64,000 bases of DNA from Candidatus Adlerbacteria bacterium (GTDB lineage: Bacteria > Patescibacteriota > Minisyncoccia > Phycocordibacterales > SBAW01), in contig JARIGK010000001.1 in assembly GCA_029288895.1 (NCBI GenBank), positions 65,446 to 129,445 of the forward strand. The letters run 5' to 3'. Within the stretch, counting starts at the first letter, position 1. Every line of letters begins with the position of its first letter. The position numbers and the translations under genes are program-made. Of the stretch, positions 5,152 through 28,305 are shown piece by piece. The notes below the pieces were generated by a model. It saw nothing but the letters and a program-made list of their open reading frames with translations. It was not told where the DNA came from and searched no databases.

Positions 5152-5157
5152 AGGTAG

Positions 5158-5586: not shown

Positions 5587-5634
5587 CCGTCCAGTATAGC
5601 GCGCATAGAGAAACCTTTCGCGTATACTATATAT

Positions 5635-7089: not shown

Positions 7090-7098
7090 GGCACTACT

Positions 7099-8643: not shown

Positions 8644-8648
8644 GTACT

Positions 8649-10091
8649 ATGAATCTCACGAAATTTTTCTCGACGCGGTCCGGTATACAAGTGTTAGTTG
8701 CGGTTGGTCTGTGTGTACTTGTAGGTTTTTTTATTTTTCTGGGAGAGCATAGATCTGCGTCGTCTGGCCCATCGTTTGGAGTTTGTCGCGGGTGCAACGT
8801 CCTTATCATAGGCGTTGATACACTCCGTGCTGACCGTTTGCATGTCTTTGGCTATAGCCGAAATACGACACCAACCATTGATGCCCTTGCCGCAAAAGGG
8901 TACGCCTTTTCAAATGCAATAGCGCCAGCAAGTTGGACTGTCCCTTCGTTTATGTCTATTTTTACGGGCACGTACCCTTCGGTGCATGGTGTTACAAATA
9001 AGTTTATTTCGTTTTCACAAGACCAAAAGCAACTTTCAAATTTGAAAATAACGGCTCCGCAAATCCAAACGCTTGCAGAAGTGCTCAAAGCAGAAGGCTA
9101 TGCAACGGGTGGCTTTACTGGAGACGCGGGCGTGTCGGGAAAGTTTGGATATAACCTTGGGTTTGATGCGTATACCGATGAGAAAGCGTTTGGAGGCTTA
9201 GAAAACAGCAAGAGCCACGCGTTAGCGTGGGCAGATCAGCTCGGCGACAAACATTTCTTTATGTTTTTCCACGGCTACGATTTGCATGGGCAATCGGCTC
9301 CGTCTGCTACAAACCCGTTTCTAGACTCTACGTATCACGGGCCCTACACCGGTAGTCCTCAAGAAGAATCAGTGTTGCGCGAGGGCGTGTTGACGCCCAA
9401 AGGCATCACGCTGACTCCGCAAGATGCGAAGTTTTGGAGCGATACGTATGACGGCAAAGTTGTACAGGCAGACAAAGAATTACAAACATTTTTGACAGAC
9501 ATGTCCGTGCGCGGATTGCTTAAGAACACACTCATCGTGTTGGTGTCAGACCATGGAGAGGAGTTTTATGAACACAAAGGGTTTGACCACGGACATACGC
9601 TCTATGACGAACTCGTACACGTCCCGCTTATCTTCGTTGTCCCAGGGATGCAGGGAGGCCAGATAATCAAGAGCCAAGTCAGTACCATGGATGTTATGCC
9701 GACCATCCTCTATCTCCTTGGGATTACCCCGCGCGGAGAGCTGTCCAATCAGTTGTCAGGCAGAGCGAATCTGGCATCGTACTTTACTGCCACATCAACG
9801 AAAGGGTATGACGTTTTTTCGGAAACTAACTACCGCGGGTACACCTATAAAAGGAGCGTGCGCACAGCGGATGGATGGAAGTATATTTTGACCCTCGAAA
9901 CCGGGAAAGAAGAACTATATAACCTCACTGTCGACAAAGGAGAGCATACGAATCTTGTTTTGACAGACGCAGATAAGGCAGAACAATTACGTGTTGAATT
10001 AAGGAATCATCTCGAGCAGGATCTACACTACGATATGTCGAAAACGCCAGCCGTTACATGCCTCCCTGTATATGACGGGGAATGTAAGTAA
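8649..10091 (+). CDS. Paralogous alkaline-phosphatase-superfamily enzyme with a Thr nucleophile motif, membrane-anchored.
   Basis: IIGVDTLRADRLHVFGY and SWTVPSFMSIFTGTYP motifs. It lies 6 nt after the previous paralog. Confidence 0.6.
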   Translation: MNLTKFFSTRSGIQVLVAVGLCVLVGFFIFLGEHRSASSGPSFGVCRGCNVLIIGVDTLRADRLHVFGYSRNTTPTIDALAAKGYAFSNAIAPASWTVPSFMSIFTGTYPSVHGVTNKFISFSQDQKQLSNLKITAPQIQTLAEVLKAEGYATGGFTGDAGVSGKFGYNLGFDAYTDEKAFGGLENSKSHALAWADQLGDKHFFMFFHGYDLHGQSAPSATNPFLDSTYHGPYTGSPQEESVLREGVLTPKGITLTPQDAKFWSDTYDGKVVQADKELQTFLTDMSVRGLLKNTLIVLVSDHGEEFYEHKGFDHGHTLYDELVHVPLIFVVPGMQGGQIIKSQVSTMDVMPTILYLLGITPRGELSNQLSGRANLASYFTATSTKGYDVFSETNYRGYTYKRSVRTADGWKYILTLETGKEELYNLTVDKGEHTNLVLTDADKAEQLRVELRNHLEQDLHYDMSKTPAVTCLPVYDGECK

Positions 10092-10148
10092 TCAAGAGCG
10101 TTTACAGGGCTCTTTGTGGCAGCTCCGGGTATACGGTATTCTTCTAGT

Positions 10149-10745
10149 ATGAGTACTCGTCCCATTCCTCGTCTTGTAGTCGGAGGAATACTGATGTGCC
10201 TTATATTTGCTCTCGCTCTTCAGGGTGGCGAGGCGTCTGCTGCAACACTTACGTCTCCGGTGACAGTGACAGGTAGTATTAGCGTGCTCGGCACGCTCTC
10301 CAAAGGTTCTGGTACATTCGTCATTGACCATCCGCTCGACCCTGCGAACGAATTGCTGTACCACTCCTTCGTCGAATCACCAGATGTAAAAAACCTCTAC
10401 GACGGCATCGCCACACTCGACAGCAAGGGGGAAGCGACAATTGTGTTGCCAGATTATTTTCTTGCACTCAATAAAGATTTTCGATATTTAGCAACACCCA
10501 TTGGCGCTCCTATGCCTACCTTGCATTTGGGCAAAGAGGTGGGCAAGCGCTGGTTTAATCTCTTTGGGGCAATACAATTTAAAATAACGGGTGGTGTGCC
10601 GGGCGGCCGCGTCTCATGGCAAGTCACGGGCATCCGCCACGACAAATTTATCGAGGACAATCCTATCCAGGTTGAAGTAGAAAAGACTGACGACACACTG
10701 GTAAAGAAGGGTGAATATCTTTTCCCTGAATTCTATGGACACTAA
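10149..10745 (+). CDS. Secreted protein with a conserved 'GSGTFVIDxPxDPANxLLYHSFVESPDVKN' domain (paralog 1 of 3).
   Basis: Signal/TM segment followed by the core KGSGTFVIDHPLDPANELLYHSFVESPDVKNLYDGIATLDSKGEATIVLPDYF, which is nearly identical in the next two genes. Confidence 0.55.
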   Translation: MSTRPIPRLVVGGILMCLIFALALQGGEASAATLTSPVTVTGSISVLGTLSKGSGTFVIDHPLDPANELLYHSFVESPDVKNLYDGIATLDSKGEATIVLPDYFLALNKDFRYLATPIGAPMPTLHLGKEVGKRWFNLFGAIQFKITGGVPGGRVSWQVTGIRHDKFIEDNPIQVEVEKTDDTLVKKGEYLFPEFYGH

Positions 10746-11292
10746 ACGAAACACTCTAAGAATTGGTGTAAGTATGTTAATACTGGCGATTCCCGTGCTC
10801 GCGTCTGCTGTCACCCTCACTGGAAACATACAATTTAAAGGAAATTTGGCGATAACAGGGGCGCTCTCGAAAGGCTCCGGCACCTTCGTCATCGATGATC
10901 CCATTGACCCTGCTAACAAACTGCTCTATCACTCGTTCGTCGAGTCGCCAGATGTAAAAAACATCTACGACGGCATCGCAACACTCGACAGCAAAGGGGA
11001 GGCAACTATTGTGCTGCCAGATTATTTCGATGCGTTGAACAAGGATTTTCGGTATGAATTTTTCCCGCTCGATAAGGCCGATCCAGGGCTCTATATAAAA
11101 ACTGGCGCCGACGTTGTGAAGAATCAATTTACGATTGCGGGCGGGACGCCAGGCGACCGCGTTTCGTGGCAAATCACTGGCATCCGCCACGACCCGTACA
11201 TTCTTGCGAACCCGGTTGTGGTAGAGGTTCCGAAAACCAACGATACTATTGTAAAAAAAGGCCAGTATCTATTTGAGGGGTATGAAAAATAA
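10735..11292 (+). CDS. Secreted conserved-domain protein (paralog 2 of 3).
   Basis: Same core domain with more than 85% identity over about 70 aa. The start is uncertain; either ATG 10735 or ATG 10774. Confidence 0.5.
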   Translation: MDTKRNTLRIGVSMLILAIPVLASAVTLTGNIQFKGNLAITGALSKGSGTFVIDDPIDPANKLLYHSFVESPDVKNIYDGIATLDSKGEATIVLPDYFDALNKDFRYEFFPLDKADPGLYIKTGADVVKNQFTIAGGTPGDRVSWQITGIRHDPYILANPVVVEVPKTNDTIVKKGQYLFEGYEK

Positions 11293-11986
11293 GACGATAT
11301 ATTTTTTTGCGCTTGCTTCACTTATATGTATGCCCATGGTGTGCGTGCACGCCTACGCTGAAGGCGGATATTACGGCCAAGGATATTATGAAGGGTATTA
11401 CCAAAGCTATTATCAGCCGTACTATCAGCCGTACTATCAGCCAACGTATCAAACGGTATTTACAAAAAATGCTGCTGCAAGCAAGACGGTGGCGGTTACG
11501 GGTAGCGTATCAAAAAGCTCCGGTACCTTCGTCATTGATGACCCAATCGACCCCGCTAACAAATTGCTTTACCACTCGTTCGTCGAGTCGCCTGACGTCA
11601 AAAACATCTACGATGGCATCGCAACACTCGACAGCAAGGGGGAAGCGACAATTGTGTTGCCCGATTATTTCGATGCGTTGAACAAGGATTTTAGATATCT
11701 GACGCGCCCAATTGGCGCCCCTATGCCAAACCTCTACATCAAAGATGAAGTGCACGACAACACATTTAGTATCGGTGGCGGGAGCCCTGGTGGACGTGTC
11801 TCATGGCAAGTCACTGGGATTCGCCACGATGCGTATATCGTTGCACACCCTATTGTCCCGGTGGTGGATAAAAGCAAAGACACAATCGTCGACCGTGGGA
11901 GCTATATCTATCCTGCAGGATTCACTTCATTTGGGAGTACATTCTTTGGATCTCTCTCGACGTTTTTTAATGCTATTTTCCACTAG
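11282..11986 (+). CDS. Secreted conserved-domain protein (paralog 3 of 3) with an N-terminal Tyr/Gln-rich low-complexity stretch.
   Basis: GGYYGQGYYEGYYQSYYQPYYQPYYQPTYQ followed by the same core domain. Confidence 0.5.
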   Translation: MKNKTIYFFALASLICMPMVCVHAYAEGGYYGQGYYEGYYQSYYQPYYQPYYQPTYQTVFTKNAAASKTVAVTGSVSKSSGTFVIDDPIDPANKLLYHSFVESPDVKNIYDGIATLDSKGEATIVLPDYFDALNKDFRYLTRPIGAPMPNLYIKDEVHDNTFSIGGGSPGGRVSWQVTGIRHDAYIVAHPIVPVVDKSKDTIVDRGSYIYPAGFTSFGSTFFGSLSTFFNAIFH

Positions 11987-11989
11987 CGC

Positions 11990-13177
11990 ATGAAGAAGTA
12001 TGTGCTTGTTGCGTGTGCCGGTGCGCTCCTTGTAGGAAGCGCAGCGCTGGTGTATGTAAAACACATACATACAACGCCCGAAGCATATGCCAAGAGTATT
12101 GTGGCTCGCTGCGCCAGTGCAGCCGACCGCACGCAGTGTTATGTGGACGAAGTGCCAAAACTTCTCGACCAAGGGGTAACGTTTGAACATTCGTTTGAAG
12201 TTGCGTACGACATCCAAGAACTCGACCAGACAGGCGAGTACTGCCATCGCATTGGGCACGCGCTTGGTGGGGCGGAAGTAGCAAAAGATCCTACTAAATG
12301 GAAAGAAGTTGCGCGCCGCACGCCGCTTGGCGAATGTCTTGCAGGAGGCTTGCATGGTGCGTTTGAAGAACATTTCAGTAAAGAGTCCCTTGCGCCTTCA
12401 GATATCCCAGCATTTAAACAAGAGATGCGCGGATTTTGCGATGTTCAGGCAGATATTCCATCATCGCCGGTGGATTTGACCATGTGTTCGCACGGTTTAG
12501 GCCATCTCTTTGTGTATGCAACAGCTGGAGATGTACAGGAATCGATCGACTTATGTTCTTCGATGAACTTTAAAACGGAAGGCGGCGTCACTGCAGAAGG
12601 CCAAGAGCTTTCCTGTTATGACGGTATGTTTATGCAGTTGCTTGAACCGCACGACAGTGAAGACGCAGCTCTTATTAAAGGGCATGAGCAAACAAAAGAT
12701 ACCGTGGGCGCCTACTGCAATGCATTCGCGCCGCTCGTACAAGCTGCATGTATCGCCCGAAGTGCCCCATTGTTTTATAAAGACTTAAATGCTGGTGCGC
12801 CCAAGCCGCTCGATTGCAATATGCTTGATAGCCAGCGTCGGCGTGACTCGTGCCTTTCGACACAGCTTCGTCTCTTTGCCCGTGATACGTTTTTTAACCT
12901 TGATGCCACGGACGACTACTGCGCTACCTACCCACAAAATAAACGGGGGTGGTGTTATGCGTCTGCTGGTTCGTTTGCGTTTATGTCCGGGTACGATTAC
13001 GAGCAGCCCTATCGTTTTTGTGCGCGGGCAGCAGCGCTTGGGGTTGGCGACCAATGCTATCAGACGCTTGCGAACATCATCCCTAACACATTCCGCGAAG
13101 ATGATCCGTCTCGTAAAGAGTTGTGCGAAAAGCTGCCCAGCGCTTATGTGCAGGCATGCATTGCGCAGCAGCAGTAA
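11990..13177 (+). CDS. Membrane-anchored, extracytoplasmic Cys/His-repeat protein (family member A). About 7 repeats of C-x-x-G... including C-x-HG-[LI]-GH.
   Basis: N-terminal TM segment. Motifs CHRIGHALG, CLAGGLHGAF, CSHGLGHLFVY, CYDGMFMQ and others. 16 Cys in total. Confidence 0.55.
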   Translation: MKKYVLVACAGALLVGSAALVYVKHIHTTPEAYAKSIVARCASAADRTQCYVDEVPKLLDQGVTFEHSFEVAYDIQELDQTGEYCHRIGHALGGAEVAKDPTKWKEVARRTPLGECLAGGLHGAFEEHFSKESLAPSDIPAFKQEMRGFCDVQADIPSSPVDLTMCSHGLGHLFVYATAGDVQESIDLCSSMNFKTEGGVTAEGQELSCYDGMFMQLLEPHDSEDAALIKGHEQTKDTVGAYCNAFAPLVQAACIARSAPLFYKDLNAGAPKPLDCNMLDSQRRRDSCLSTQLRLFARDTFFNLDATDDYCATYPQNKRGWCYASAGSFAFMSGYDYEQPYRFCARAAALGVGDQCYQTLANIIPNTFREDDPSRKELCEKLPSAYVQACIAQQQ

Positions 13178-13183
13178 AGCCCG

Positions 13184-14779
13184 TTATTTTCTAAGCTCGA
13201 GTAGTCGTGCTGTAAGTGGTGCGAATACTTCTGTGTGAGCGCGCGCATCCAGTGCTAGAAGGGTAGATAGTGCGTATGCAGATTGTAGGTCGCGTTTGTA
13301 CGAAAGTAGTGTATAGCCTGTAGGTGCAAGCTCCACTGTCGAGCGACTTTCAAATAATGATGTGCCAGGGGGGAATGGGCCCGTCTCATTTCCGATCATA
13401 AAGAGAGATGAAATGCCGCCGCGCAACATAAAAAACACGCTCGTCCGGTATGGGTCGTACGTGCCGGTAACATAGGTGCCAAGCGAAAGGTCATCGAAGT
13501 AACCTACGACACGCTCAAAATGTGCGCTTCCTGTGCGCGAAGCTAATACAAGGTTCCGAAGCGTTTCGAGTTGTTCGGCCCCAAGCATCGCAGGGAGTGT
13601 GCGTTGGTCTGTTGTAGTGAGGAGCCGTTCCGCACTTTGTATAAATGCTCGATACGATTGCTCGCGAGGCACATCTTCACTAATGAGTTCGTTTTGTGCA
13701 GCGAGCATATCATGTACGGTGGATGAGTTAGAAGGCATGAGCGGGACGATAGGATGTTGTTGCAATGTTTCGCGTGCGTCTTGTATCGACAGCAGAAGCC
13801 CAACGTCCTGGCCAAAATCTTGGCAAATATAGGCATTAAATGATTGGTTGGAATAGGTCGCCCCAGTGTTGTAGTACGCCTTGCTGTAGCGCACGGGTAT
13901 TTTCTTGAGGTCGTAAAAGAAAGAGTCGTTCAAGATTGTAAAATATTCCGCTGTCACGCCAGAAAGTATGGACGCGTGTGTTCCCACATCAACATATGCA
14001 GGAGTAAATGACGGATAGCATCGTGAATGAGAAAGTGCAACGGTGGTCGTGTCGGTAAGCGTTACGCCGAGGCGTGCAGTAAACGCACGCGCTGCAGTTT
14101 TGATATACGCCACATCGCTCGGGAGGTCGGTCGATGCAGGTAATGTGTTCTGTGCTGATGGAGAAGAGGCTCCTGATGGAGGCCAATACCTCCAGTGTGC
14201 GCACTCGAGCACGTTACCTTCTGCACACGAGTAGCGCCTATTTTCTTCTTTTCTCATTGCGATGAGCCCTTGTCTGCCTCGTTCGAGCACTGACATGATA
14301 TACCCTGAGCTTGTAGTGCCGCCAAAGGATTGAATGGTAGTTTTTTTGCCGACATCGAGCGCCGCAATATCGTGTGCGAGCGCTGCATCATATGAATCAA
14401 AAAGTGCGAGAAGGGCAGCGTGGTACGCGTCTGCATGTGCTGATGTCGGCTCTGTAAGGAGTGCTCTTCGTTTTTCTTCTGCCGAGGCGCTAGCTTCAAG
14501 AAATGCGATTGGGTAGACACCGTGGCTCCATGAGCCATCCGAATCGTCGCTGAAGGGGAGTACTGCAACGCGCGCACTTTTTTCGAGCTCTTGTGTCGCC
14601 GTGATCATATCAGGCAGCGATGTTCGAGGAAGCGCCATCATGGGATATTCCTCATGTTGCCGTGCATATCCGGCCCATCCATCTGCGTGTGCGGAGTAGA
14701 AGAAATACCCTAGAACTATAAGGATACAAAGGAGAAGTGCGAGACCAAGGCGGAGTGCACGTATTCTTGCAGCCTTCAT
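13184..14779 (-). CDS. 531-aa N-terminally membrane-anchored protein of unknown function (paralog of 16615..18246).
   Basis: Single N-terminal TM segment. Shares AEPT(S/Q)xHAxxYHAAL(L/H)AL and other blocks with the 546-aa paralog. Divergent from the cassette 2 peptide, sharing the AGTATACT palindrome. Confidence 0.55.
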   Translation of the reverse strand: MKAARIRALRLGLALLLCILIVLGYFFYSAHADGWAGYARQHEEYPMMALPRTSLPDMITATQELEKSARVAVLPFSDDSDGSWSHGVYPIAFLEASASAEEKRRALLTEPTSAHADAYHAALLALFDSYDAALAHDIAALDVGKKTTIQSFGGTTSSGYIMSVLERGRQGLIAMRKEENRRYSCAEGNVLECAHWRYWPPSGASSPSAQNTLPASTDLPSDVAYIKTAARAFTARLGVTLTDTTTVALSHSRCYPSFTPAYVDVGTHASILSGVTAEYFTILNDSFFYDLKKIPVRYSKAYYNTGATYSNQSFNAYICQDFGQDVGLLLSIQDARETLQQHPIVPLMPSNSSTVHDMLAAQNELISEDVPREQSYRAFIQSAERLLTTTDQRTLPAMLGAEQLETLRNLVLASRTGSAHFERVVGYFDDLSLGTYVTGTYDPYRTSVFFMLRGGISSLFMIGNETGPFPPGTSLFESRSTVELAPTGYTLLSYKRDLQSAYALSTLLALDARAHTEVFAPLTARLLELRK

Positions 14780-14801
14780 CAGAGACAGTATACTTTACTG
14801 C

Positions 14802-15002
14802 ATGAAGAGGAGATTCGCCCTCATACCACTATTTCTCCTTTCAGCCCTTGCTGTGGGAATGCTTTCTTCAAAAAGAGATGCAGCACTGAGCTGTGTCGAG
14901 CCTGGGGTGGGCGCATCTGCTCCGAACATGTCGAATTCTTCGTCGGTACAAGCAGAAGAGTCAGATCGAGTCTACAATATTTGGTGCGGAGGCGTTTTCT
15001 AA
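14802..15002 (+). CDS. 66-aa exported or membrane-anchored small peptide (cassette 2 peptide). C-terminus ...DRVYNIWCGGVF.
   Basis: Paralog of the 2782..2973 peptide. AGTATACT lies 7 nt upstream of the ATG. Confidence 0.6.
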   Translation: MKRRFALIPLFLLSALAVGMLSSKRDAALSCVEPGVGASAPNMSNSSSVQAEESDRVYNIWCGGVF

Positions 15003-15011
15003 AACGACGGT

Positions 15012-15335
15012 ATGGATGATGCACATAGGACGTCCGCGTGGCCCGCACTCGGGCGCATGCTTGATGATATCCAACCCAAAGGCCTTGGCATTTTGTTGCC
15101 CCCGATACTTCAACTCCATCGACCTGCATATCTTGAAGCGCGTGCGCGCACTATTGTAGTCGCTGTTGCGCTTCCGTCGCAGATTTCCGCACTTACTGGT
15201 CTGGTTGAAGAAGCTTCGATCGAAGCTGTTATAGCAACACAAGGAGCGGCGAATGAATTTGCTGCCGATTTGGAGCGAGTAGGGCTTACAACAAATATAA
15301 AAGCCTGGTTTATTGTCGACGAAAAACCACTATGA
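15012..15335 (+). CDS. 107-aa protein of unknown function (cassette 2 middle gene), paralog of 2973..3422.
   Basis: About 40% identity to the cassette 1 middle gene. Its stop overlaps the ligase start. Confidence 0.55.
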   Translation: MDDAHRTSAWPALGRMLDDIQPKGLGILLPPILQLHRPAYLEARARTIVVAVALPSQISALTGLVEEASIEAVIATQGAANEFAADLERVGLTTNIKAWFIVDEKPL

Positions 15336-16618
15336 CACCGCTCTCCCGCGCGCTTTCATTTGCGATTGAAAATCCGCATTCTGATTTTTACCGCCGCAAG
15401 TACGGCAAAGACTTTCGTGCGTATATACAAAAAGAACTTTCGGAGATTCCATTTCTGACAAGACAAGAAATAGATACAACGCCCGTGTTTGACCGCATCT
15501 TTGTTCCAAAAGAAATGGTCCGGTTTGTGCGTGCGACCTCAGGTTCGTCCGGGCGCGGCGCAGTTCTATTTCCAGCAGTCGAAGAGCCGGAGATGATGGA
15601 CTTCCGACGTTCGCTCGGGTTTAGCGGCGACGAAGGTGAGGCCGGGCGCTACTTCGGGCCCTATTTTAAAAAAGAAGATGCATATTCACTGTTGATGTTT
15701 TCTACGTCCGATGCTTTGCATCAAGCCTATTTTTCCGACTACGCTGGCCGGAGGGTTATCGCGGGCGACTATCAACACGCAGAAAAGACAGTTGCACTGT
15801 CGGCAGCTGCAGGCGTTGATTCGATATTTTCATTTCCGTCGCCGCTTATCAGCATTGCAGACACTTTCAAAAAAGATGGTTTTGCCTCGCGCATCAAGAT
15901 GATTGTGCTCATGGGTGAGCGTATGACAGAACTCCAGCGCAGAACGCTTGTTGCGCAGTTTCCTCATGCAAAGATCGTCACGCTCTATGCGTCCACTGAT
16001 GCACATGGAACGATGGGGAATACGTGCCCTGCTCGCGTGACAGAATTTCCTAACCATATTCATCCGTTTCCAACATATGCGCTTGAAGTTATTGACCCTG
16101 AGTCGGGCATGGCGCTCCCTATGCAGGCAGGCACGGAAGGAGAAGTGGTAATCACGGCACTCACGCCGATGGCGTTTCCGCTCATTCGATATCGCACCGG
16201 AGATTATGCGGTCGTGCACGCCAGCGGCCCATGTGCGTGCGGCAGTACTGAGCCGCTTCTTGAGATTTTGGGCAGAGTAGAACTCGATCGCATTAAACTG
16301 CTCCCGTATGGCGGCGTGAGCGTTGCGGCTATCGAAGAAGCAATTGCTGCCCTTCCATTTCCTGTTCTTGATTTTACTGCTGCATGGTCACAGAAGGGTC
16401 CGCTGCCGGGACTCTCGCTCGTGCTCTATACCGACGGGTCTGTACCTCATGATTCTGTCGCGCTCGTGGCAGAGAAAATCCAAGTCAGCGCGACCCATAC
16501 GTATCACGATGTAGTGGTGCGTGGTGCTGTCTTGCCACTTACAGTTTCTTTTGAACCTGCAGCGGGTGCGCGTGGTCCGCATCATGCAAAGCCTAAACGT
16601 CTGCAGATTATCCGTTAG
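15332..16618 (+). CDS. PaaK / F390-synthetase-like adenylate-forming enzyme (cassette 2 ligase).
   Basis: RATSGSSGRGAV P-loop, YRTGD hinge, 428 aa. About 50% identity to the 3419..4702 product. Confidence 0.75.
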   Translation: MTPLSRALSFAIENPHSDFYRRKYGKDFRAYIQKELSEIPFLTRQEIDTTPVFDRIFVPKEMVRFVRATSGSSGRGAVLFPAVEEPEMMDFRRSLGFSGDEGEAGRYFGPYFKKEDAYSLLMFSTSDALHQAYFSDYAGRRVIAGDYQHAEKTVALSAAAGVDSIFSFPSPLISIADTFKKDGFASRIKMIVLMGERMTELQRRTLVAQFPHAKIVTLYASTDAHGTMGNTCPARVTEFPNHIHPFPTYALEVIDPESGMALPMQAGTEGEVVITALTPMAFPLIRYRTGDYAVVHASGPCACGSTEPLLEILGRVELDRIKLLPYGGVSVAAIEEAIAALPFPVLDFTAAWSQKGPLPGLSLVLYTDGSVPHDSVALVAEKIQVSATHTYHDVVVRGAVLPLTVSFEPAAGARGPHHAKPKRLQIIR

Positions 16619-18246
16619 TGGCTAGTGTCTGTATGAGTGTGCGCGTAGCGAGCGCGAGCATCGAGAAGGGACGAAATAAAGCCTCCAAATACCTGTTGGC
16701 GGATCTGTATATCTTGGAGAAGTGTCTTTTGCAATTCGTTTCTTGAAAGTTCTTTGCTCACGTCGTGTGTATATGAACGGATAGTGCCATTAAGCAATGC
16801 ATTATTCGAATCGGATGCGGTTGCGCGCACCTCGACGAGTGAGCGGAAGATGGGCTCCACCGTTCTATTATTGAGTGCAAATAATTGCGAAAGCCCGCTG
16901 CGTGCAATAAGAAATGCTTGCGGCGAGCTTTTTCTGTATTGATATGGAATATAGCTGCCGACTTGGAGGTCGTCGAAATATCCAAGCACTTCGGCGAGAT
17001 CGGCGCTACGCGCTCTGCTTTGGGCTACTAGTTCGGTGAGACGCGCGGCTTCTTCGCTGCTGCCGAGATAGTGCGCTAACGCATCTATCCCGTAGATGCG
17101 CACCAGCATGGACGATGCTGATATAAACGCATTGTAGGTGCGTTGCGTGTATACATTTTCTTGCAGCACGTGTTTTTGTGCCTGTATAAATTGCTGCGCC
17201 GTTGGTGTCAGAGAGCCGGAAAATAGAAACGGCTTGGTTCGAAGAGACGCCGAGAGATTTGAAATAGCAAGAACGTCGCCGATGTCTTCGCCTGCATCAG
17301 GGCACAAATACACGTTGAAGGGCTGATACGTAAATGTGTCGCCTGCGCTGGCGAGCGCGTGGTAAAACGGATGGTCGGTACGGGTCGTGTCGTCGAGATA
17401 TATGTCGCTCAGTAGTACAACATTGGCTGCTGCGATTCCTGAAAGTCTGGATGAGGTCGTCGCGACTGCAAAATATATCGGCGCATAGGCGTAACATGCA
17501 GAGGACGAAAGTTCTATAAGAGGAGAGGAATCAAGAGAAGGATAGACTACTGTGAGTGTCTTCCTATTCTCTACCGCTTCTTCCGTGGATGAAGATTCCG
17601 ATTGAGATTCAAGCTCTTGTGCGCTATGGAGTGTGCCAAACGTTGCGCGTGCATATATGAGTGACTCGCACTGAGATGCGGTTCCTTGTTCGCACTGCCA
17701 GCGTCTGTCTTCTTGTGCGAGTAATGATTGAGCATCTGTCTGTGCGTGCGCAAGACGCTCTTCTATATGTGCGCTTGTGGTTTTGCCACTTAAAAAATCA
17801 AACTCTGCAGGATCGTTTTGTTGGAGAAGCACATTCCGCGCATTTCTCAGGTCGTCTATATACGAAGAGATAAGCGCGTGCAGTGCAGCGTGGTACATGG
17901 AGGCGTGTTCTTGTGTCGGCTCGGCAAGAAGAGCGCGTCGAGCTGTTTCGGTGCGTGGGAGTTGGTCCAAAAAACGAAATGGGTACAGCGCGTCGCGTGT
18001 GGCCTCGCCTTCGAGGTATGGAGGTACTGCAACCGCTGCGGAGAGTTTAAATTCGGACACCGCATGTGTAAGCGATTCGGGCGTACTTCCTGGGAATGCA
18101 AATAGTGGATCAAGCTGCTGCATCTGTGCGTATGCGGCCGCACTGCCTTGCATGGTGTACATTTCATGCAACCGCTCCCATGCGCCTATGCCAAAGAGGG
18201 CAGCCACCAACAGAAGGCAGAGGAGGCCGGTTTTGAGTCTATACAT
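16615..18246 (-). CDS. About 543-aa N-terminally membrane-anchored protein of unknown function (paralog of 13184..14779).
   Basis: Convergent with ligase 2, with a 4-nt overlap. Probable ATG at 18246. The track extends it to a TTG at 18255. Confidence 0.55.
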   Translation of the reverse strand: MYRLKTGLLCLLLVAALFGIGAWERLHEMYTMQGSAAAYAQMQQLDPLFAFPGSTPESLTHAVSEFKLSAAVAVPPYLEGEATRDALYPFRFLDQLPRTETARRALLAEPTQEHASMYHAALHALISSYIDDLRNARNVLLQQNDPAEFDFLSGKTTSAHIEERLAHAQTDAQSLLAQEDRRWQCEQGTASQCESLIYARATFGTLHSAQELESQSESSSTEEAVENRKTLTVVYPSLDSSPLIELSSSACYAYAPIYFAVATTSSRLSGIAAANVVLLSDIYLDDTTRTDHPFYHALASAGDTFTYQPFNVYLCPDAGEDIGDVLAISNLSASLRTKPFLFSGSLTPTAQQFIQAQKHVLQENVYTQRTYNAFISASSMLVRIYGIDALAHYLGSSEEAARLTELVAQSRARSADLAEVLGYFDDLQVGSYIPYQYRKSSPQAFLIARSGLSQLFALNNRTVEPIFRSLVEVRATASDSNNALLNGTIRSYTHDVSKELSRNELQKTLLQDIQIRQQVFGGFISSLLDARARYAHTHTDTSH

Positions 18247-18269
18247 GCGCTTCAAGTATACTAAATACC

Positions 18270-19517
18270 GTGACTATTCCGTTGTCTATGCGCCGAGTGA
18301 CGCCGCTCATTATCTCGGTCTTTATTCTTGGCGCTACTGCGTGCTACGGCTACTACACGCACCAGAGGACGCCGTACCCGGAACTCCAAGATTTGGCGCT
18401 CCATCCGCGAAGTTTCCCCGAACTCCAAACGTATTTTAAAAATCTTGCGCAACAAAAAGGTGCGCTCTATGCATACCAAATTTTGCGCGAGGCAGAGCTG
18501 CCGCCGCAGACAGACGTGCATCTCCTTGGGCACACCGTGGGAGATGAGTTGTATAAGCAGTATGGCAAAGATGCAATTTCATATTGTACGAATGAGTTCA
18601 GGAACGCGTGCTCTCATTCTGTCGTTATCGGACTTCTTCTCGAGTACGGAACGTCGGTGCTTGATGATATTAACGAGTCATGCAAAAAAGCGCCCGGCGG
18701 TATCGGCGCCTACACAATGTGTTTCCATGGGTTAGGACATGGCGTTCTTGCGTATGAACAGTACGATTTGCCGAAGACCATCGCGCTCTGCAAAAAAATG
18801 GGAACCGCGGCATATCATAACGAAGAGTATGGGCAGTGTGTTGGTGGCGCGATTATGGAAGGGATTGCCGGGGGCGGCCACGACAGGGCCTCGTGGGAAA
18901 AAGCACGTCCGCAGTATTACACTACTCAAGATCCGCTTTCGCCATGCGACCAGAGCTATATGCCACAAGAAGTCCGTACCTTCTGTTACATCTACATCAC
19001 GCCGCATTTGGTTGAGGCCGCTGGCGGCGATATGAATCATCCAGACCCGAGCGTTTTTCCAAAAGCATTCTCGTTCTGCCGGGCACTCCCCGAATCTGAC
19101 CATAACAGGGAAGTGTGCATGAACGGGTTTGGAAAAGAATTTGTTGGATGGGCTCGCCAGAGCGACCCGCGCAGCATCACAACGCTTACTGACCAAGAAA
19201 TGGAGTTGAGTTCTTCGTGGTGTGCACTTTCGGGTACTGCCAAAGATACCCGCTACTGCTTGCAGGGTATTCAGTCATATGTGTACTGGGGTGGAGAAAA
19301 TGACCCGCGCCCATCGGTCCGTTTTTGTTCTTTGTTATATGCGCAGGATCCAGACTCTGGGTCGACCTGTTACGAAGATTTGTCGCGTCTTATCGCAAAA
19401 TATGTTGTTGATCCGGATACGCGCAAAGCAACATGCGCATTGTTGCCTGAGTCTGTGCAACACGAATGCATGACATTTAAACAAACGTGGAACGGCGAGC
19501 CCGATGTGCTGCACTGA
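18270..19517 (+). CDS. Cys/His-repeat exported protein (family member B).
   Basis: GTG start 7 nt after AGTATACT. N-terminal TM segment. Motifs CSHSVVIG, CFHGLGHGVLAY, CVGGAIMEG, CMNGFGKEF, CLQGIQSY. Confidence 0.55.
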   Translation: MTIPLSMRRVTPLIISVFILGATACYGYYTHQRTPYPELQDLALHPRSFPELQTYFKNLAQQKGALYAYQILREAELPPQTDVHLLGHTVGDELYKQYGKDAISYCTNEFRNACSHSVVIGLLLEYGTSVLDDINESCKKAPGGIGAYTMCFHGLGHGVLAYEQYDLPKTIALCKKMGTAAYHNEEYGQCVGGAIMEGIAGGGHDRASWEKARPQYYTTQDPLSPCDQSYMPQEVRTFCYIYITPHLVEAAGGDMNHPDPSVFPKAFSFCRALPESDHNREVCMNGFGKEFVGWARQSDPRSITTLTDQEMELSSSWCALSGTAKDTRYCLQGIQSYVYWGGENDPRPSVRFCSLLYAQDPDSGSTCYEDLSRLIAKYVVDPDTRKATCALLPESVQHECMTFKQTWNGEPDVLH

Positions 19518-19527
19518 TATAGCCCAC

Positions 19528-20604
19528 ATGAGCGGAGCAATTACTAGGACAAAACAGTATACGGTAGGTCTCTTGTGTATAGCGCTTGTCGTATGCGCAG
19601 GGCTACTGCTGTATTCGAGATCTGCCGCCGCATCTCTACCAACGTTTGATTTACATACGCACGATGGTCTCGTGCAAGCAGAATCATTCTGGAACAAAGA
19701 GATTGCGCGTGTTGGCGGAGAAAAAGCGTACACTGAATTTCTCGAATTCTACGCAACTTCGACGCCTCAAGATCAGCATACTGCTGCGCATATCTTTGGC
19801 GGCAGTTTATTTACAGACGAAGGAGTGCCCGGGCTCGCGGTGTGTGACACATCTTTTTCGTACGGCTGTTTCCACGAATTCCTCGCGCGCGCGATACAGC
19901 AAAACGGACTCGGCAGCGTCGACATGCTTAACGAAGCGTGTTTCCAAGCGCTGGGGCCGGGGAAGTCACTTTCCTGCGCGCATGGGTTAGGCCACGGGAT
20001 TCAGTCGTACCTTGGATACAATAACGACGCGCTCAAAAAAAGCTTAGGTATTTGTAAAACTTTGCCGTACGGCGACCCAATAGGAGGCTGTCCAGGCGGC
20101 GTATTTATGGAATTCAATATGCGTACGATGGGATCTACGTCGGGCATTCCGACGCGGCCACTTGAGCCGGGTGGTTGGTACTATCCATGCAACACCTTAT
20201 CCGTTGACGACAAAGCAGTCTGCTACTACTGGCAAACACAGTGGTGGGCACAGGTTTTGAAAGGGCAAGGAAAGAATACGGATGAGTCGTTTGTAACGAT
20301 GGGGAGATTATGCGAAAGTATTTCTTCTTCGTATCGAGAAAAGTGTTTTTCCGGTATTGGCACCCTTATAGGCATTGATTCAGATTTTGATGTTGAGAAA
20401 GCAGGTACGTTATGCAGAGAAACCTCTCCTCTAGAAAGTCAGCAGAATGTGTGTCTTATAACCGGCGCAAGCTCTTTTTTTGCTGAGCCTACAGCCCGAG
20501 CTCGAGCGTCAGGTGTGTGCTTGAATATTGCAGAACCCTGGTACACGCGTTGTGTGCGATCTTCTTTAGGAAAATCAGAAGTACCGCCCCCTATGGGAGA
20601 TTAA
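19528..20604 (+). CDS. Cys/His-repeat exported protein (family member C).
   Basis: CAHGLGHGIQSY, CPGGVFMEF, CFSGIGTLIG. TGATAT -10-like box 7 nt upstream of ATG 19528. Confidence 0.55.
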   Translation: MSGAITRTKQYTVGLLCIALVVCAGLLLYSRSAAASLPTFDLHTHDGLVQAESFWNKEIARVGGEKAYTEFLEFYATSTPQDQHTAAHIFGGSLFTDEGVPGLAVCDTSFSYGCFHEFLARAIQQNGLGSVDMLNEACFQALGPGKSLSCAHGLGHGIQSYLGYNNDALKKSLGICKTLPYGDPIGGCPGGVFMEFNMRTMGSTSGIPTRPLEPGGWYYPCNTLSVDDKAVCYYWQTQWWAQVLKGQGKNTDESFVTMGRLCESISSSYREKCFSGIGTLIGIDSDFDVEKAGTLCRETSPLESQQNVCLITGASSFFAEPTARARASGVCLNIAEPWYTRCVRSSLGKSEVPPPMGD

Positions 20605-20610
20605 TACACT

Positions 20611-21846
20611 ATGACTGCGTTGCATCCAGAAAAAAAAATCTCATTGCGCGTACGCATCCTTGGGTTTGCTATGGTGTTTGTGCTCGCTGCGTTTTTTATT
20701 GTTGGGGCAAACCCGACGCTTTCCCAAAGCGCGGCACACCTTACGGCAAAAGCGTTCGTAATGTATTGCACGAAGCAGACTGACAATGCTGCGTGTTACG
20801 AACGTACCGTACCGCGGCTGTTATATATAAGCCCCATCAGCAGTGTCTTTTCAGTGGTGCGCGAAATCCAAGCGCAAGATTCGTCGTATCGTTTTTGCCA
20901 TGTACTTGGACATCAGCTTGGTGTGTTTGAAGTGCAGCGCGACCCTAACCATTGGATGGATCTTTTGCATAACAACCCGCCAGACGGCCTGTGCTCCAAC
21001 GGGTATATCCATGGCGTTATGGTGCAGAAGTTTAGTGAGACAGTATTTACTCCTGCACAAATTGATGCGATCGTCCCAGACCTCTCCCGGGCGTGCGAAC
21101 CGTCGCCGGGGTGGAACCCGAGCGATCTTGATAAAGCAATGTGCTACCACGGTATAGGGCATGTCCTCACGCACATGACAGACGCGAATATGCCGCTGGC
21201 AGTTTCGTACTGTAAACAAATTGCGATCAAGGGCAATGAAGACTACAGCCGGGTGTGTATTTCTGGAGTATTTATGCAGATATTTCAGCCCCTTGAGCCG
21301 GAAGATTACGCGCTTATCGCACGCTTGCCTGTGAAGCCGACAAAAGAAAATCTCGCATCGTTTTGTAGTGCGTACGCGACAGAGGAAGAGAGGAGTGCGT
21401 GTCTTGGTGAAGGGTGGCCGCTCTATCGCGAACAATTACAAACAGCAGAGGGGATAGAAAAGTTTTGCACGACCAGCACCGTACCCTCAACACAAAAAAA
21501 TTGCTTTATGACGGTGTTCTCCATTGGCGCACGCGGGTCTCTGGCTGATCCAGGGCCGCACGAGGCGCTCTGTACTTCATTGCCGGCGCCATATGCAGAA
21601 GAGTGCCGCGGCATTTTGGCTGAAGCGTTTATCGAAGAAGACAGAACTAAGGTCGCGAGTGCCGCTGCAGTATGCAGTCGTGCAGAAAGTAGCAGCGCGC
21701 AGGACGCCTGTTATGAATATCTGCTTGCCCGTGCAGCGTTTACCTTTGGTAATGACAAGAGTGCGCTGGAGCCTCTCTGTAAGGTATTTCCTGCATCGTG
21801 GGCTGCCCGATGCGAGGCGGGCGAACGGCCTGAAATTCAGCAATAG
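20611..21846 (+). CDS. Cys/His-repeat exported protein (family member D).
   Basis: CHVLGHQLG, CSNGYIHGV, CYHGIGHVLTH, CISGVFMQI, CFMTVFSIG. Confidence 0.55.
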   Translation: MTALHPEKKISLRVRILGFAMVFVLAAFFIVGANPTLSQSAAHLTAKAFVMYCTKQTDNAACYERTVPRLLYISPISSVFSVVREIQAQDSSYRFCHVLGHQLGVFEVQRDPNHWMDLLHNNPPDGLCSNGYIHGVMVQKFSETVFTPAQIDAIVPDLSRACEPSPGWNPSDLDKAMCYHGIGHVLTHMTDANMPLAVSYCKQIAIKGNEDYSRVCISGVFMQIFQPLEPEDYALIARLPVKPTKENLASFCSAYATEEERSACLGEGWPLYREQLQTAEGIEKFCTTSTVPSTQKNCFMTVFSIGARGSLADPGPHEALCTSLPAPYAEECRGILAEAFIEEDRTKVASAAAVCSRAESSSAQDACYEYLLARAAFTFGNDKSALEPLCKVFPASWAARCEAGERPEIQQ

Positions 21847-21874
21847 TAGGGTGGCGGCGTGATACCATATTTGT

Positions 21875-22393
21875 ATGAAAAAATTCTGGACTCTGTTGCT
21901 GTGGAGCGCGGTCTGCTTGCCGCTTGCTGTCTCTGCGCATAACACCGGCCGGTCATTCGAGAAGCAGATCGGCAACTACCTTGTTGATATTGGCTATAAC
22001 GTCGAGACTGAAATAGTCGCTGGCGAACCAGTCTATTTTGATTATGAGCTGTATCAGCGCGAACCAGCCCCGGGCGATGCTGCATATAGCGATGTGTGGG
22101 TGCGTATCTCACAAGCCAGCACGACGCTTTTTGCAACTGGCATTGCGCACATGACGTCTGGGCAGACAGGAATGATGTACACCTTTGATAGGCCCGGAAC
22201 ATACACTATGAGTGTCCGATATGAGCGGGGAGATACAACGCTTGCCGAAACGTCATTTCCGCTGGAAGTTGCGCCGGGAGGCCCTGCATCACCATCAGTC
22301 CCATATCCGACCCTCCTCATAGGGGCAGTAATTCTTTTGTGTGGAACGGTATTTCTCCTCTATAAGCAGAGGCGAGCGCGTGCTATCGTGTAG
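21875..22393 (+). CDS. Small exported protein with a signal peptide, a beta-sandwich-sized domain and a C-terminal TM anchor. The mature N-terminus is predicted to begin with His (CopC/YcnI-like architecture).
   Basis: Predicted cleavage LAVSA|HNTG. A domain of about 110 aa follows, then LLIGAVILLCGTVFLLYKQRRAR. Confidence 0.4.
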   Translation: MKKFWTLLLWSAVCLPLAVSAHNTGRSFEKQIGNYLVDIGYNVETEIVAGEPVYFDYELYQREPAPGDAAYSDVWVRISQASTTLFATGIAHMTSGQTGMMYTFDRPGTYTMSVRYERGDTTLAETSFPLEVAPGGPASPSVPYPTLLIGAVILLCGTVFLLYKQRRARAIV

Positions 22394-22395
22394 GT

Positions 22396-24405: not shown

Positions 24406-24408
24406 GGT

Positions 24409-24846: not shown

Positions 24847-24856
24847 AGAAAAGACC

Positions 24857-25132: not shown

Positions 25133-25151
25133 ATGGAGCTAGAATAGAGAC

Positions 25152-26643: not shown

Positions 26644-26644
26644 T

Positions 26645-27100: not shown

Positions 27101-27106
27101 ATTTCT

Positions 27107-28302: not shown

Positions 28303-28305
28303 ATC

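Follow-up and report, generated by a model that had tools for sequence, protein, structure and literature searches.

A gene for a 66-aa peptide, a gene for a small middle protein (MID) and a gene for a PaaK-like ligase follow one another tightly in a 64,000-nucleotide stretch of DNA from a Candidatus Adlerbacteria bacterium (the window), and the same order of genes recurs within it. This raises the question of why a short peptide should be kept beside an adenylate-forming enzyme and what that enzyme may do to it. The answer tentatively proposed here is that the cassette is part of a conserved, undescribed cell-envelope system in which the ligase loads an acid onto a cysteine of the peptide as a thioester. 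CPR bacteria are mostly uncultured with a large share of genes of no known function, and neither an annotation nor a paper describing a peptide-MID-ligase system was found in the literature searched. The two cassettes comprise the following features.

2745..2774, forward strand, sigma-70-like promoter TTGATC-18-TATACT, ending 7 nt 5′ of the cassette-1 peptide ATG
2782..2973, forward strand, cassette-1 peptide, 63 aa, tail ERVYFVGCGGLF
2973..3422, forward strand, cassette-1 MID, 149 aa, its ATG overlapping the peptide TAA
3419..4702, forward strand, cassette-1 PaaK-like ligase, 427 aa
14789..14794, forward strand, TATACT -10-like box read from the sequence, 7 nt 5′ of the cassette-2 peptide ATG
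14802..15002, forward strand, cassette-2 peptide, 66 aa, tail DRVYNIWCGGVF
15012..15335, forward strand, cassette-2 MID, 107 aa, after a 9-nt gap
15332..16618, forward strand, cassette-2 PaaK-like adenylate-forming ligase, 428 aa, cytoplasmic, with a 4-nt ATGA overlap with MID

Two copies of one gene set

The reading frames of cassette 2, its 9-nt gap and its 4-nt overlap lie exactly where the original prediction had put them, and the recurrence of the gene order reflects a true, diverged duplicate with cassette 1 (2782..4702) lying 12 kb upstream. The similarity between the enzymes and between the middle proteins was also correctly seen but the figures change, with the ligases, given as about 50% identical, aligning at 42% identity over 425 aa (E 4e-115) and the MIDs, given as about 40%, at 47% over 96 aa (E 9e-28). 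Pairwise alignment of the two peptides gives 33% identity overall (E 1e-8 as a single comparison), concentrated in the C-terminal motif (D/E)RVYxxxCGG(V/L)F. Judged from these alignments the cassettes are two old, diverged paralogous copies of one gene set, and they hold the only two members of the peptide family within the window. For the cassette-1 MID, a 229-aa ORF with a GTG start was set aside in favour of the 149-aa ATG start.

The spacing of the cassette-1 promoter is such that the transcript would be leaderless or nearly so. At cassette 2 the -35 region (TTGCAG) is too weak and a consensus scan reports no promoter there. In each of the eight CPR type-A loci, the type to which the window's system belongs, a TATACT hexamer precedes the peptide ATG by 7-14 nt, and the peptide-MID-ligase operon, with its 9-nt or overlapping junctions, is likewise kept in eight such loci. 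Rfam and tRNA scans detected no RNA element near the cassettes.

A peptide family with a fixed cysteine

Peptide ORFs occur at the same position in eight related CPR loci, with a dN/dS of 0.20 between loci L002 and L009 (dS 0.58) and of 0.27 between cassette 1 and L011. The peptide ORFs are real genes under purifying selection, in keeping with the original prediction that they are genuinely coding, with both position and motif kept in related genomes. Across the fetched loci and the window, 36 of 9,685 small ORFs end in C[GNSAT][GSTAN][LIVFM][FYLIVMW], against an average of 1.95 matches among residue-shuffled ORFs and 3.5 matches when the same pattern was set 1-20 residues before the end, placing the likeness of the peptides above chance. 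The search for further copies also returned 102 database clusters matching the family profile, of which 98 reach E ≤ 2e-5, the best value being 8.7e-17. No peptide matched a Pfam or NCBIfam model above threshold. That these are chance ORFs of coincidental likeness draws on the finding that the exact window peptide sequences are not recorded as called genes in a collection of 15 billion proteins; selection at a dN/dS of 0.20-0.27, the 36 ORFs against some 2-3.5 expected, the 102 cluster matches and the conserved -10 box rule it out, and we give it practically no credence.

The shared tail motif stands but CGG[LV]F, on which the original prediction had fixed, is too narrow to define the family. 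Orthologues of the cassette-2 peptide (L001/2, L003, L008 and L009) end in (V/I)WCGG(V/I)(F/Y), those of the cassette-1 peptide (L004 and L011) in VGCGGLF and the sister-clade peptides in CNSIL, CSSIL or CNGFF, the family pattern being C-[GNS]-[GST]-hydrophobic-hydrophobic after an N-terminal membrane helix. The cysteine stands exactly five residues from the stop in 102 of 102 database clusters and in the 36 locus ORFs, and with one extra residue allowed the only tail variants found were an added terminal Asp in L018 and in the second L108 copy. The defining feature of the peptide is this invariant cysteine five residues from the C-terminus, Cys(-5).

The hydrophobic N-terminus of the original prediction is confirmed but is a membrane helix or signal anchor of 17-22 residues rather than a cytoplasmic leader of the RiPP type. 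It was detected by the helix test of this analysis in 34 of the 36 tail-matching ORFs; the L095 ORF fails the test yet keeps the C-terminal context of the family, and the L074 ORF looks like a chance match. The cassette-2 peptide has its helix at residues 3-21, a mid cysteine at Cys31 and the tail cysteine five residues from the end. Because the N-terminus is a membrane helix or signal anchor and not a cytoplasmic leader, the conserved tail probably comes to lie outside the cell. The charge distribution suggests an N-in/C-out arrangement for the CPR type-A peptides, being ambiguous or reversed for some others such as that of L006.

Of 26 aligned peptides 24 have two cysteines, as do 93 of the 102 database clusters. 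The mid cysteine, absent from the L006 and L095 peptides which both have Cys(-5), follows the helix at a distance of some 10-20 residues, with S, M, F, N or Q as the residue before it. A lipoprotein reading of this residue was rejected as there is no lipobox ([LVI][ASTVI][GAS]C) directly after the hydrophobic region. CaaX-like prenylation of the peptide, prompted by the isoprenylcysteine-methyltransferase-like, UbiA and polyprenyl synthase genes of the type-B loci (see below), is a possibility given no rank here, the motif being Cys+4 and not Cys+3 and those genes being absent from type A.

The ligase, MID and the surrounding genes

Among solved structures the ligase matches PaaK (2y27, E 3e-15; 2y4o, E 7e-14; 4r1l, E 2e-12), and this homology to ANL and PaaK structures together with its P-loop, YRTGD hinge and C-terminal Lys places it in the ANL superfamily. 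Across 13 homologues there is no variation in TSGSSG, YRTGD, CxCG or the C-terminal Lys420, the invariant residues including T69, S70, G71, S72 and G74, R288, T289, G290 and D291, and K420, the last assigned by position as the putative catalytic Lys. The original description of the enzyme as PaaK-like therefore holds for fold and motifs, although it falls below the curated thresholds for PaaK and all other named families. It scores 25.6 bits against a gathering score of 29.9 for Pfam AMP-binding, 93.8 (cassette 2) and 101.8 (cassette 1) against a cutoff of 300 for the best NCBIfam model, DVU_1553 (NF045666), and 55.3 against 646.3 and 60.5 against 700 for the PaaK models TIGR02155 and NF041878. 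It shares with PaaK, FlxY, BagE/FevW, AjiA1 and DVU_1553 the fold family, a length of ~430 aa, the P-loop, YRTGD, CxCG and the C-terminal Lys but is less than about 30% identical to them, has no paa operon and has as partners a membrane peptide and a truncated, dead paralogue, its acceptor being probably not CoA. On this comparison the ligase is an adenylate-forming enzyme of PaaK-like kind, intact but very distant and not PaaK itself, and it looks active given that ATP-binding and catalytic motifs are kept. It has no membrane helix, and its nearest named relatives (PaaK, FlxY and BagE) activate small aryl acids.

Ligases reach 108 bits or more against the family profile in 47 loci; 33 of these loci have the peptide, and the other 14 are in our reading mostly short contigs or cases with the ligase at a contig edge. 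No peptide was found in any listed PaaK-like locus scoring below 108 bits, and searches started from the ligases and from the peptides found the peptide family only beside this ligase subfamily. It is this gene linkage that makes the peptide a candidate substrate of the ligase.

Profile comparison with hhalign aligns MID residues 31-102 to ligase residues 125-194 (probability 66%, E 5e-5) and the long MIDs of non-CPR loci to ligase residues 139-306 (probability 90.7%, E 1.3e-6). Having neither a P-loop nor a C-terminal domain, MID is on these alignments a truncated, catalytically dead paralogue of the ligase and not an independent family. It matches no Pfam or NCBIfam family above threshold, and the sole match of its profile to PDB sequences, to a designed repeat, was discarded as spurious. 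Neither in the ligase nor in MID did Pfam and NCBIfam detect a PqqD-like RiPP recognition element, MID aligning to the ligase N-domain instead.

The original prediction had treated the three genes as the unit, whereas the conserved unit was found to be larger and takes in the neighbouring BIG and 415-family genes.

11990..13177, forward strand, 415-family paralogue, one of four, Cys/His-rich and membrane-anchored
13184..14779, reverse strand, BIG protein, 531 aa, N-terminal membrane anchor and large extracytoplasmic helical domain, divergent from cassette 2
16615..18255, reverse strand, BIG protein, 546 aa, convergent with the cassette-2 ligase with a 4-nt overlap
18270..19517, forward strand, 415-family paralogue in tandem
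19504..20604, forward strand, 415-family paralogue in tandem
20611..21846, forward strand, 415-family paralogue in tandem

The two BIG proteins are paralogues (30% identity, E 1e-56) of a family with 555 representatives at 50% identity, for which an exhaustive HMMER search was needed as a word-indexed search gave 4 matches only. BIG adjoins the cassette in L003, L006, L008, L088, L090 and L108, and its fold, predicted with high confidence, matches no solved structure. The 415 family, recognised by all-vs-all clustering, co-occurs with the cassette in L001, L003, L006, L008, L009 and L090 and matches no Pfam or NCBIfam family; its alignment shows invariant HxxxH and CxHGxGH motifs and 13 invariant Cys, with the protein at 11990..13177 having 19 Cys and an N-terminal membrane helix.

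Among the genes examined at 29..23340 only MID and the ligase are without an N-terminal hydrophobic segment, two ORFs being set apart from this count, the first (29..2761), whose start may be miscalled, and that at 21875..22393, which has an evident signal-like N-terminus. Nearly all neighbouring gene products are thus predicted to be extracytoplasmic, and since MID and the ligase lack the segment that nearly all their neighbours carry, the ATP-dependent chemistry would precede export. Two genes between the cassettes labelled 'Sulfatase' were rejected as true sulfatases as they have no C/S-x-P-x-R motif. Neither the window nor the other type-A loci hold an enzyme supplying an acid, and the conserved type-A gene set is without small-molecule pathway genes. 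The scans of window proteins brought up no lyase, and in the 28 neighbouring ones searched against Pfam neither an AgrB-like nor a kinase family appeared.

Candidate chemistry of the peptide tail

In the proposed mechanism the 66-aa product would be made in the cytoplasm as a signal-anchored peptide, with MID acting as an adaptor paired with the ligase, which would use ATP to adenylate a small carboxylic acid. The acyl group would pass to the thiol of the invariant Cys(-5), rather than to coenzyme A, giving an S-acyl (thioester) peptide whose N-terminal helix would then bring the charged tail to the outer side of the membrane. Outside, BIG and the 415 family, joined in sister clades by an Lnt-like acyltransferase, may use or process the charged tail.

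The sister clades suggest that the acid is an aryl acid. In type-B loci a lyase gene adjoins the peptide gene, being co-directional with it in L020, L104, L109, L111, L167 and L169, and the L020 lyase, the sole one scored against NCBIfam, reaches 622 bits for the flexirubin tyrosine ammonia-lyase FlxA against 450 for histidine ammonia-lyase. As the ligase is the only candidate adenylating enzyme recognised in the inspected loci L017, L018, L020 and L167-L169, p-coumarate would be the natural substrate of the type-B ligase. Type-B loci often carry an isoprenylcysteine-carboxyl-methyltransferase-like enzyme and also have UbiA prenyltransferase, polyprenyl synthase and caffeoyl-CoA-O-methyltransferase-like genes. 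The Lnt-like acyltransferase gene is dedicated to the system and found in the sister clade only; its type-B product has both the Lys and the Cys of a nitrilase triad, the local alignment with solved Lnt not reaching the catalytic Glu region. A third clade has a dehydroquinate-synthase-like enzyme and an arylsulfotransferase.

Several known systems resemble parts of this arrangement. The chromophore of PYP depends on a tyrosine ammonia-lyase (TAL), a p-coumarate ligase and a thioester at Cys69 (PMC12826048), and FlxA/FlxY of flexirubin synthesis follow the same lyase and ligase logic (PMC3992019). Type-B loci share with these a FlxA-like TAL, this ligase and an invariant-Cys polypeptide, but the acceptor here would be a 60-80-aa membrane peptide and not a PAS domain, the ligase is PaaK-like and not 4CL-like, and the TAL is confined to the type-B sister loci with none in the window's type-A system. 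In the D-alanylation of teichoic acid an acyl group is carried by DltX, a small membrane protein with one helix, on a short conserved motif at its extracytoplasmic C-terminus, in a pathway that begins with the ANL enzyme DltA and ends at a membrane-anchored extracellular protein (PMC13653941). The peptide resembles DltX in its small size, single helix and short conserved C-terminal motif; its candidate acyl site is however a Cys, recharging it outside the cell would not be possible and Pfam scans of the neighbours found no MBOAT (DltB) or carrier protein (DltC). In DAG-RiPPs a C-terminal motif is modified in the cytoplasm and the product, exported via a signal peptide, is membrane-bound, with Lnt taking part (PMC13056109), whereas the present peptides have no lipobox, the enzyme is ANL and not MNIO and the Lnt-like gene is in the sister clade only. 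As in RiPP clusters generally, a short precursor gene with a conserved recognition part and a variable part lies beside a putative modifying enzyme.

Acid loading does not by itself explain why the cysteine is fixed at exactly -5 in every peptide. This, the strongest regularity of the family, would be explained if the ligase adenylated the C-terminal carboxylate of the peptide itself and the Cys lying four positions earlier closed a five-residue AIP-like thiolactone ring, the step from carboxylate to thioester being standard chemistry for an adenylate-forming ligase. The ring residues, small-small-hydrophobic-hydrophobic (GGLF, NSIL, SSIL), resemble those of AIP-II (GVNACSSLF), and Agr AIPs share the Cys plus four residues, small after the Cys with two hydrophobic at the end, as well as an N-terminal membrane-directing segment. 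A thiolactone would also suit a conserved type-A gene set without an acid source, an absence that, in the window too, counts against acid loading. The ring-closing energy of the Agr system comes from cleavage of a C-terminal tail by AgrB, whereas here the peptide stops at the last ring residue with no such tail and the energy would come from the ATP-dependent ligase. A PaaK-like enzyme acting on the C-terminus of a peptide is not known to us, and neither AgrB, AgrC nor a receptor kinase was found among the neighbours scanned, nor did any NCBIfam AgrD model match the peptides. ATP-dependent ring closure on a RiPP has a precedent in GrcB, a ThiF-like/E1-like enzyme with a RiPP recognition element that forms a thiolactone from a Glu side chain to a C-terminal Cys (PMC12250964). 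The proposed common feature is an ATP-dependent adenylating enzyme acting on a ribosomal peptide to give a Cys thioester, but the enzyme here is of the ANL superfamily and no recognition element was found. The type-B loci also weigh against a thiolactone, which would leave the lyase beside the peptide gene without a role, no other activating enzyme being evident there, while their isoprenylcysteine-carboxyl-methyltransferase-like enzyme, if acting on the peptide, implies a free C-terminal carboxylate. It is because a tyrosine ammonia-lyase adjoins the peptide gene in these sister loci that acid loading is favoured, and self-cyclisation is considered unlikely.

The link between ligase and peptide could also be functional rather than chemical, with the ligase making an ordinary acyl-CoA or acyl-AMP for an envelope lipid or pigment and the tail serving as a recognition, sorting or cleavage signal for BIG, the 415 family or the Lnt-like protein. 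The type-B UbiA, polyprenyl synthase and caffeoyl-CoA-O-methyltransferase-like genes together resemble a pathway to prenylated phenolics, the predicted position of the tail outside the cell puts it beyond the reach of the ligase, and the Lnt-like protein with its nitrilase-triad Lys and Cys could cleave or transfer at the tail. Such an indirect link is nonetheless doubtful in view of the tight operon kept in eight loci, the peptide never being seen with other PaaK-like ligases and the lack of small-molecule pathway genes in the type-A set. Harder still to credit is a peptide that carries no modification and serves as a small subunit or regulator in the membrane, tethering or gating ligase-MID or BIG for example, with its two cysteines forming an extracellular disulfide. 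The presence of two cysteines in most peptides and the Cys-rich extracytoplasmic neighbours, which fit an oxidising compartment, would agree with this, but the L006 and L095 peptides have lost the mid Cys and kept Cys(-5), and a stop codon fixed relative to a Cys is unusual for a plain disulfide loop. Loading of an acid onto Cys(-5), the preferred reading, has difficulties of its own in that exposed peptide thioesters are labile, an acceptor exported after a single loading would be consumed stoichiometrically and the inferred N-in/C-out charge pattern is not uniform, as in L006.

A more speculative extension, to which we attach rather low confidence, is that these are 'pre-charged' peptides, in which a thioester made with ATP, either S-aryl-acyl or a thiolactone of AIP size, would be stored on a tail that is then exported to the outside of the cell, where no ATP is available. 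There enzymes of new fold (BIG or the His/Cys-rich 415 family) or a dedicated Lnt-like acyltransferase would draw on the stored energy to ligate, cyclise or transfer the group, making this a new ribosomal-peptide class of envelope modification or signalling, widespread in CPR/Patescibacteria and also in other phyla. The system joins four unannotated families, the peptide (at least 102 database clusters), MID, BIG and the 415 family, with the Cys fixed five residues from a free C-terminus as the common clue. To our knowledge no PaaK-like enzyme acts on a ribosomal peptide, and if the ligase charges the Cys it would be the first known to us to do so. Peptides with a thioester or thiolactone would then be reached by a new route, as an ATP-driven analogue of Agr signalling or as an aryl chromophore borne on a peptide, and the system would show how cells of minimal metabolism bring activated acyl groups to their surface.

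Two related cassettes in the window

Cassette 2 and its paralogous copy, cassette 1, each consist of genes for a short peptide, a small middle protein (MID) and a PaaK-like ligase.

14802..15002, + strand, cassette-2 peptide, 66-aa ORF
15012..15335, + strand, cassette-2 MID, 107 aa, after a 9-nt gap from the peptide
15332..16618, + strand, cassette-2 ligase, 428 aa, overlapping MID by 4 nt
2782..2973, + strand, cassette-1 peptide, 12 kb upstream of cassette 2
2973..3422, + strand, cassette-1 MID, 149 aa from an ATG overlapping the peptide stop
3419..4702, + strand, cassette-1 ligase

The three cassette-2 ORFs, with their gap and overlap, lie where the original prediction placed them. The ligases are indeed duplicates, at 42% identity (E 4e-115) rather than the claimed 50% or so, and so are the MIDs, with 47% identity over 96 aa, for which about 40% was slightly low. 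The peptides have the proposed common ends, sharing 33% identity (E 1e-8), most of it within the hydrophobic N-terminus and the motif (D/E)RVYxxxCGG(V/L)F, with a C-terminal pattern scan of small ORFs finding exactly two such peptides in the window. The true start of the cassette-1 MID is the ATG of the 149-aa ORF, not that of a 229-aa GTG ORF. Two cassettes ~12 kb apart also occur in CALREW01 (fetched loci L003 and L004) and CAYGIN01 (L008 and L011), and each paralogue lineage retains its own tail (VGCGGLF vs (V/I)WCGG(V/I)(F/Y)), so the duplication is old and not a local accident.

That the small ORFs are truly coding, as had been argued, is borne out by the retention of position and tail in related loci and by purifying selection. 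In all close loci with enough flank (L001/2, L003, L004, L008, L009 and L011) an ORF of 62-80 aa lies directly upstream of the MID gene and ligase, with an N-terminal hydrophobic helix and the tail ...(R/K)(V/I)Yx(V/I)(W/G)CGG(L/V/I)(F/Y)-stop. The peptide dN/dS was 0.20 between L002 and L009 (dS 0.58; ligase of the same pair, 0.09) and 0.27 between cassette 1 and L011 (dS 1.0), and a chance-ORF reading is excluded. A TATACT box lies 7-14 nt 5′ of the peptide ATG in 8/8 candidate phyla radiation (CPR) loci, with a full TTGATC-18-TATACT found on scanning the cassette-1 promoter, suggesting that the peptide genes have a promoter of their own and a transcript with little or no leader. Neither window peptide, at its exact boundaries, has a record in a collection of 15 billion proteins, which does hold the cassette-2 MID and ligase adjoining one of them; the peptide genes were probably left uncalled in the source genome. 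In the NCBI assembly of L001 a frameshift breaks MID into fragments of 50 and 51 aa (3700..4004), while L002, an independent Logan assembly with an identical ligase, has an intact 131-aa MID (327..722), such that the split is probably an assembly error rather than a pseudogene.

The ligase, MID and the wider peptide family

The ligase is a distant PaaK-like adenylate-forming enzyme, matching 2y27 in the PDB (E 3e-15) with NCBIfam scores all far under cutoff (DVU_1553, 94 of 300 bits; PaaK, 55 of 646; FlxY, 60 of 520). Only ~13 close relatives were found among 5.8 billion proteins, the few source names and the locus records being CPR (among them Adlerbacteria, Nomurabacteria and 'Saccharibacteria'). 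TSGSSG, YRTGD, CxCG and the C-terminal Lys are invariant across 13 homologues and no membrane helix is predicted, and we regard the ligase as a cytoplasmic enzyme that is catalytically competent. MID matched no Pfam or NCBIfam family. In profile comparisons CPR MIDs map to ligase residues 125-194 (probability 66%), and those of non-CPR loci, which are longer (238-308 aa) and mostly retain the CxCG end, map to residues 139-306 (probability 90.7%, E 1.3e-6). This mapping, with the P-loop and C-terminal domain absent from all MIDs, identifies MID as a paralogue of the ligase that is truncated and dead, its most plausible role being that of an adaptor or heterodimer partner.

Around ligase relatives, 166 loci were fetched from genomes and metagenomes, and of the 9,685 small ORFs in these loci and the window, 36 finish with the pattern C-[GNSAT]-[GSTAN]-[LIVFM]-[FYLIVMW], compared with ~2-3.5 in controls. 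By our own helix test 34 of the 36 have an N-terminal hydrophobic helix; nearly all carry an aromatic residue 3 or 4 positions before the Cys and most a second, mid-peptide Cys. With a profile built from 26 of these ORFs, 102 database clusters were found (56-94 aa); they are free of Pfam domains and named, where at all, 'hypothetical' or 'uncharacterized membrane protein'. All 102 have Cys at position -5 (CNSIL in 66, CNSII in 18, CSSLI in 4, and others), preceded by HFSG in 81, and the sole departures found were one added terminal Asp, in L018 and in the second copy of L108. The further copies for which a search of the genome and metagenomes had been suggested do exist, and their tails are not limited to CGG[LV]F, with CNSIL, CNSII, CSSLI and CNGFF also occurring.

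The linkage of peptide and ligase is sharp. Where the ligase reaches 108 bits or more against the family profile (47 loci), 33 loci have a peptide, the other 14 being, in our reading, mostly short contigs or ligases at a contig edge. Among the PaaK-like loci listed with lower scores, no peptide occurs. Searching in reverse from three peptide clusters gave at each locus a ligase-sized gene (409-414 aa, without a Pfam domain) directly adjoining an Lnt-like gene. Copy number varies elsewhere: L088 has three ligase paralogues and one MID in a row (2884..7549), L108 another ligase-like gene together with a further peptide, ending ...CGGFLD (4857..5981), and L032 two identical peptide genes (819..1028 and 2240..2449).

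Neighbouring genes and sister architectures

Neighbour clustering gave a conserved set (type A) of peptide, MID, ligase and two anchored families, BIG and 415.

13184..14779 and 16615..18255, two BIG copies, ~535 aa, N-terminal anchor
11990..13177, 18270..19517, 19504..20604 and 20611..21846, four 415 paralogues, membrane-anchored

The set also occurs at L006, L088, L090 and L108, whose remaining genes are not CPR-like and where the ligase is only ~30% identical with the peptide tail still ...CGG(F/I)(Y/F). BIG (555 representatives at 50% identity) has a confidently predicted fold (pLDDT 94.5, pTM 0.92) for which no solved structural relative was found. The 415 paralogues, a family without known annotation that accompanies the cassette even at L006, have 17-19 Cys each with HxxxH and CxHGxGH invariant, residues which may form an extracytoplasmic metal site. 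Among the genes examined at 29..23340, a signal or anchor is clearly missing only from MID and ligase.

Other window genes include two membrane-anchored proteins matching Pfam 'Sulfatase' (7099..8643 and 8649..10091), rejected as true sulfatases on having DSLRTD and DTLRAD in place of the C/S-x-P-x-R formylglycine motif; we take them to look more like LtaS/EptA-type transferases. Three tandem secreted paralogues without annotation (10116..10745, 10711..11292 and 11273..11986, the third with a (Y/Q)YQP repeat) have long near-identical stretches in common (...SGTFVIDDPIDPANKLLYHSFVESPDVKNIYDGIATLDSKGEATIVLPDYF.ALNKDFRY...), suggestive of gene conversion in the recent past, and this family also adjoins the cassette in L001, L004 and L009. 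A 910-aa protein (29..2761), assigned to no Pfam family and containing the recurring motif ...NVGIGTT(T/S)P..., is encoded immediately upstream of cassette 1, and L004 and L011 have relatives of it in the corresponding place. The rest of the window is given over to housekeeping: genes at 23368..33853 comprise GAPDH, RpiB, ribulose-phosphate epimerase and a peptide release factor, with putative split transketolase halves and putative fructokinase-like and aldolase-like ORFs; PheT, GyrB, SMC and RNase R follow the release factor, with a single tRNA-Thr at 35916..35991. This reduced content fits a small CPR genome.

In a sister clade (type B: L013, L015-L018, L020, L032, L098, L101, L104, L107, L109, L111 and L167-L169) tails read ...HFSGC(N/S)S(I/L)(L/I), and in 13/13 clustered loci the ligase gene shares an overlap with that of a dedicated Lnt-like acyltransferase (LNT_N + CN_hydrolase). 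One Lnt-like member reached 125.7 bits with TIGR00546, whose cutoff is 132.9, and all of these proteins keep Lys and Cys of the nitrilase triad. An aromatic amino-acid lyase gene adjoins the type-B peptide gene, co-directionally in L020, L104, L109, L111, L167 and L169; that of L020, the only one scored against NCBIfam, has as its best match FlxA, the tyrosine ammonia-lyase of flexirubin (622 bits; histidine ammonia-lyase, 450). Isoprenylcysteine-carboxyl-methyltransferase-like membrane enzymes, caffeoyl-CoA-O-methyltransferase-like enzymes, UbiA prenyltransferase and polyprenyl synthase are frequent extras. In a third type (L014 and L110) tails end ...VGCNGFF and the ligase occurs with a dehydroquinate-synthase-like enzyme, L014 additionally having an arylsulfotransferase and a BIG protein.

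Possible chemistry at the peptide tail

In the databases and literature searched, neither a paper nor a source annotation, nor any model of Pfam or NCBIfam, was found to describe the peptide, MID, BIG, the 415 family or the association among them. The enzyme class and chemistry proposed here are of known kinds, and a categorically new mechanism of pre-charged exported peptides is improbable.

Thioester formation is the chemistry that joins an adenylate-forming ligase with an invariant Cys. In the leading, tentative reading the ligase would adenylate a small, probably aromatic, acid and then transfer the acyl group with Cys(-5) of the new peptide as acceptor in place of CoA, the helix would export the tail and extracytoplasmic proteins would then act on it; everything mechanistic beyond gene content, conservation, intact motifs and the predicted topology is inferred. 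It draws on the ligase being the only candidate activator of the lyase product recognised in the inspected type-B loci. Lyase and ligase form an established pair in FlxA/FlxY (PMC3992019) and, with a Cys acceptor, in photoactive yellow protein (PMC12826048). Ribosomal peptides modified in the cytoplasm and then exported via a signal peptide exist (PMC13056109), and, as DltX illustrates, an acyl group can be borne outside the cell on the C-terminal motif of a small membrane protein (PMC13653941). Two points weaken the S-acylation reading: the -5 spacing is unaccounted for and type A lacks an acid source.

That spacing, with the small-small-hydrophobic-hydrophobic ring, is accounted for perfectly by the main rival. 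In it the C-terminus of the peptide itself would be activated by the ligase, with ATP driving formation of a thiolactone whose size matches that of staphylococcal autoinducing peptides, and GrcB is a precedent for ATP-dependent thiolactone formation (PMC12250964). This rival leaves the lyase without explanation, and we regard it as rather unlikely. Two other readings keep the peptide out of the ligase active site: the tail as a sorting or cleavage signal, which is doubtful, and the peptide as a plain membrane subunit, which is very unlikely. The main hints to function come from the sister architectures.
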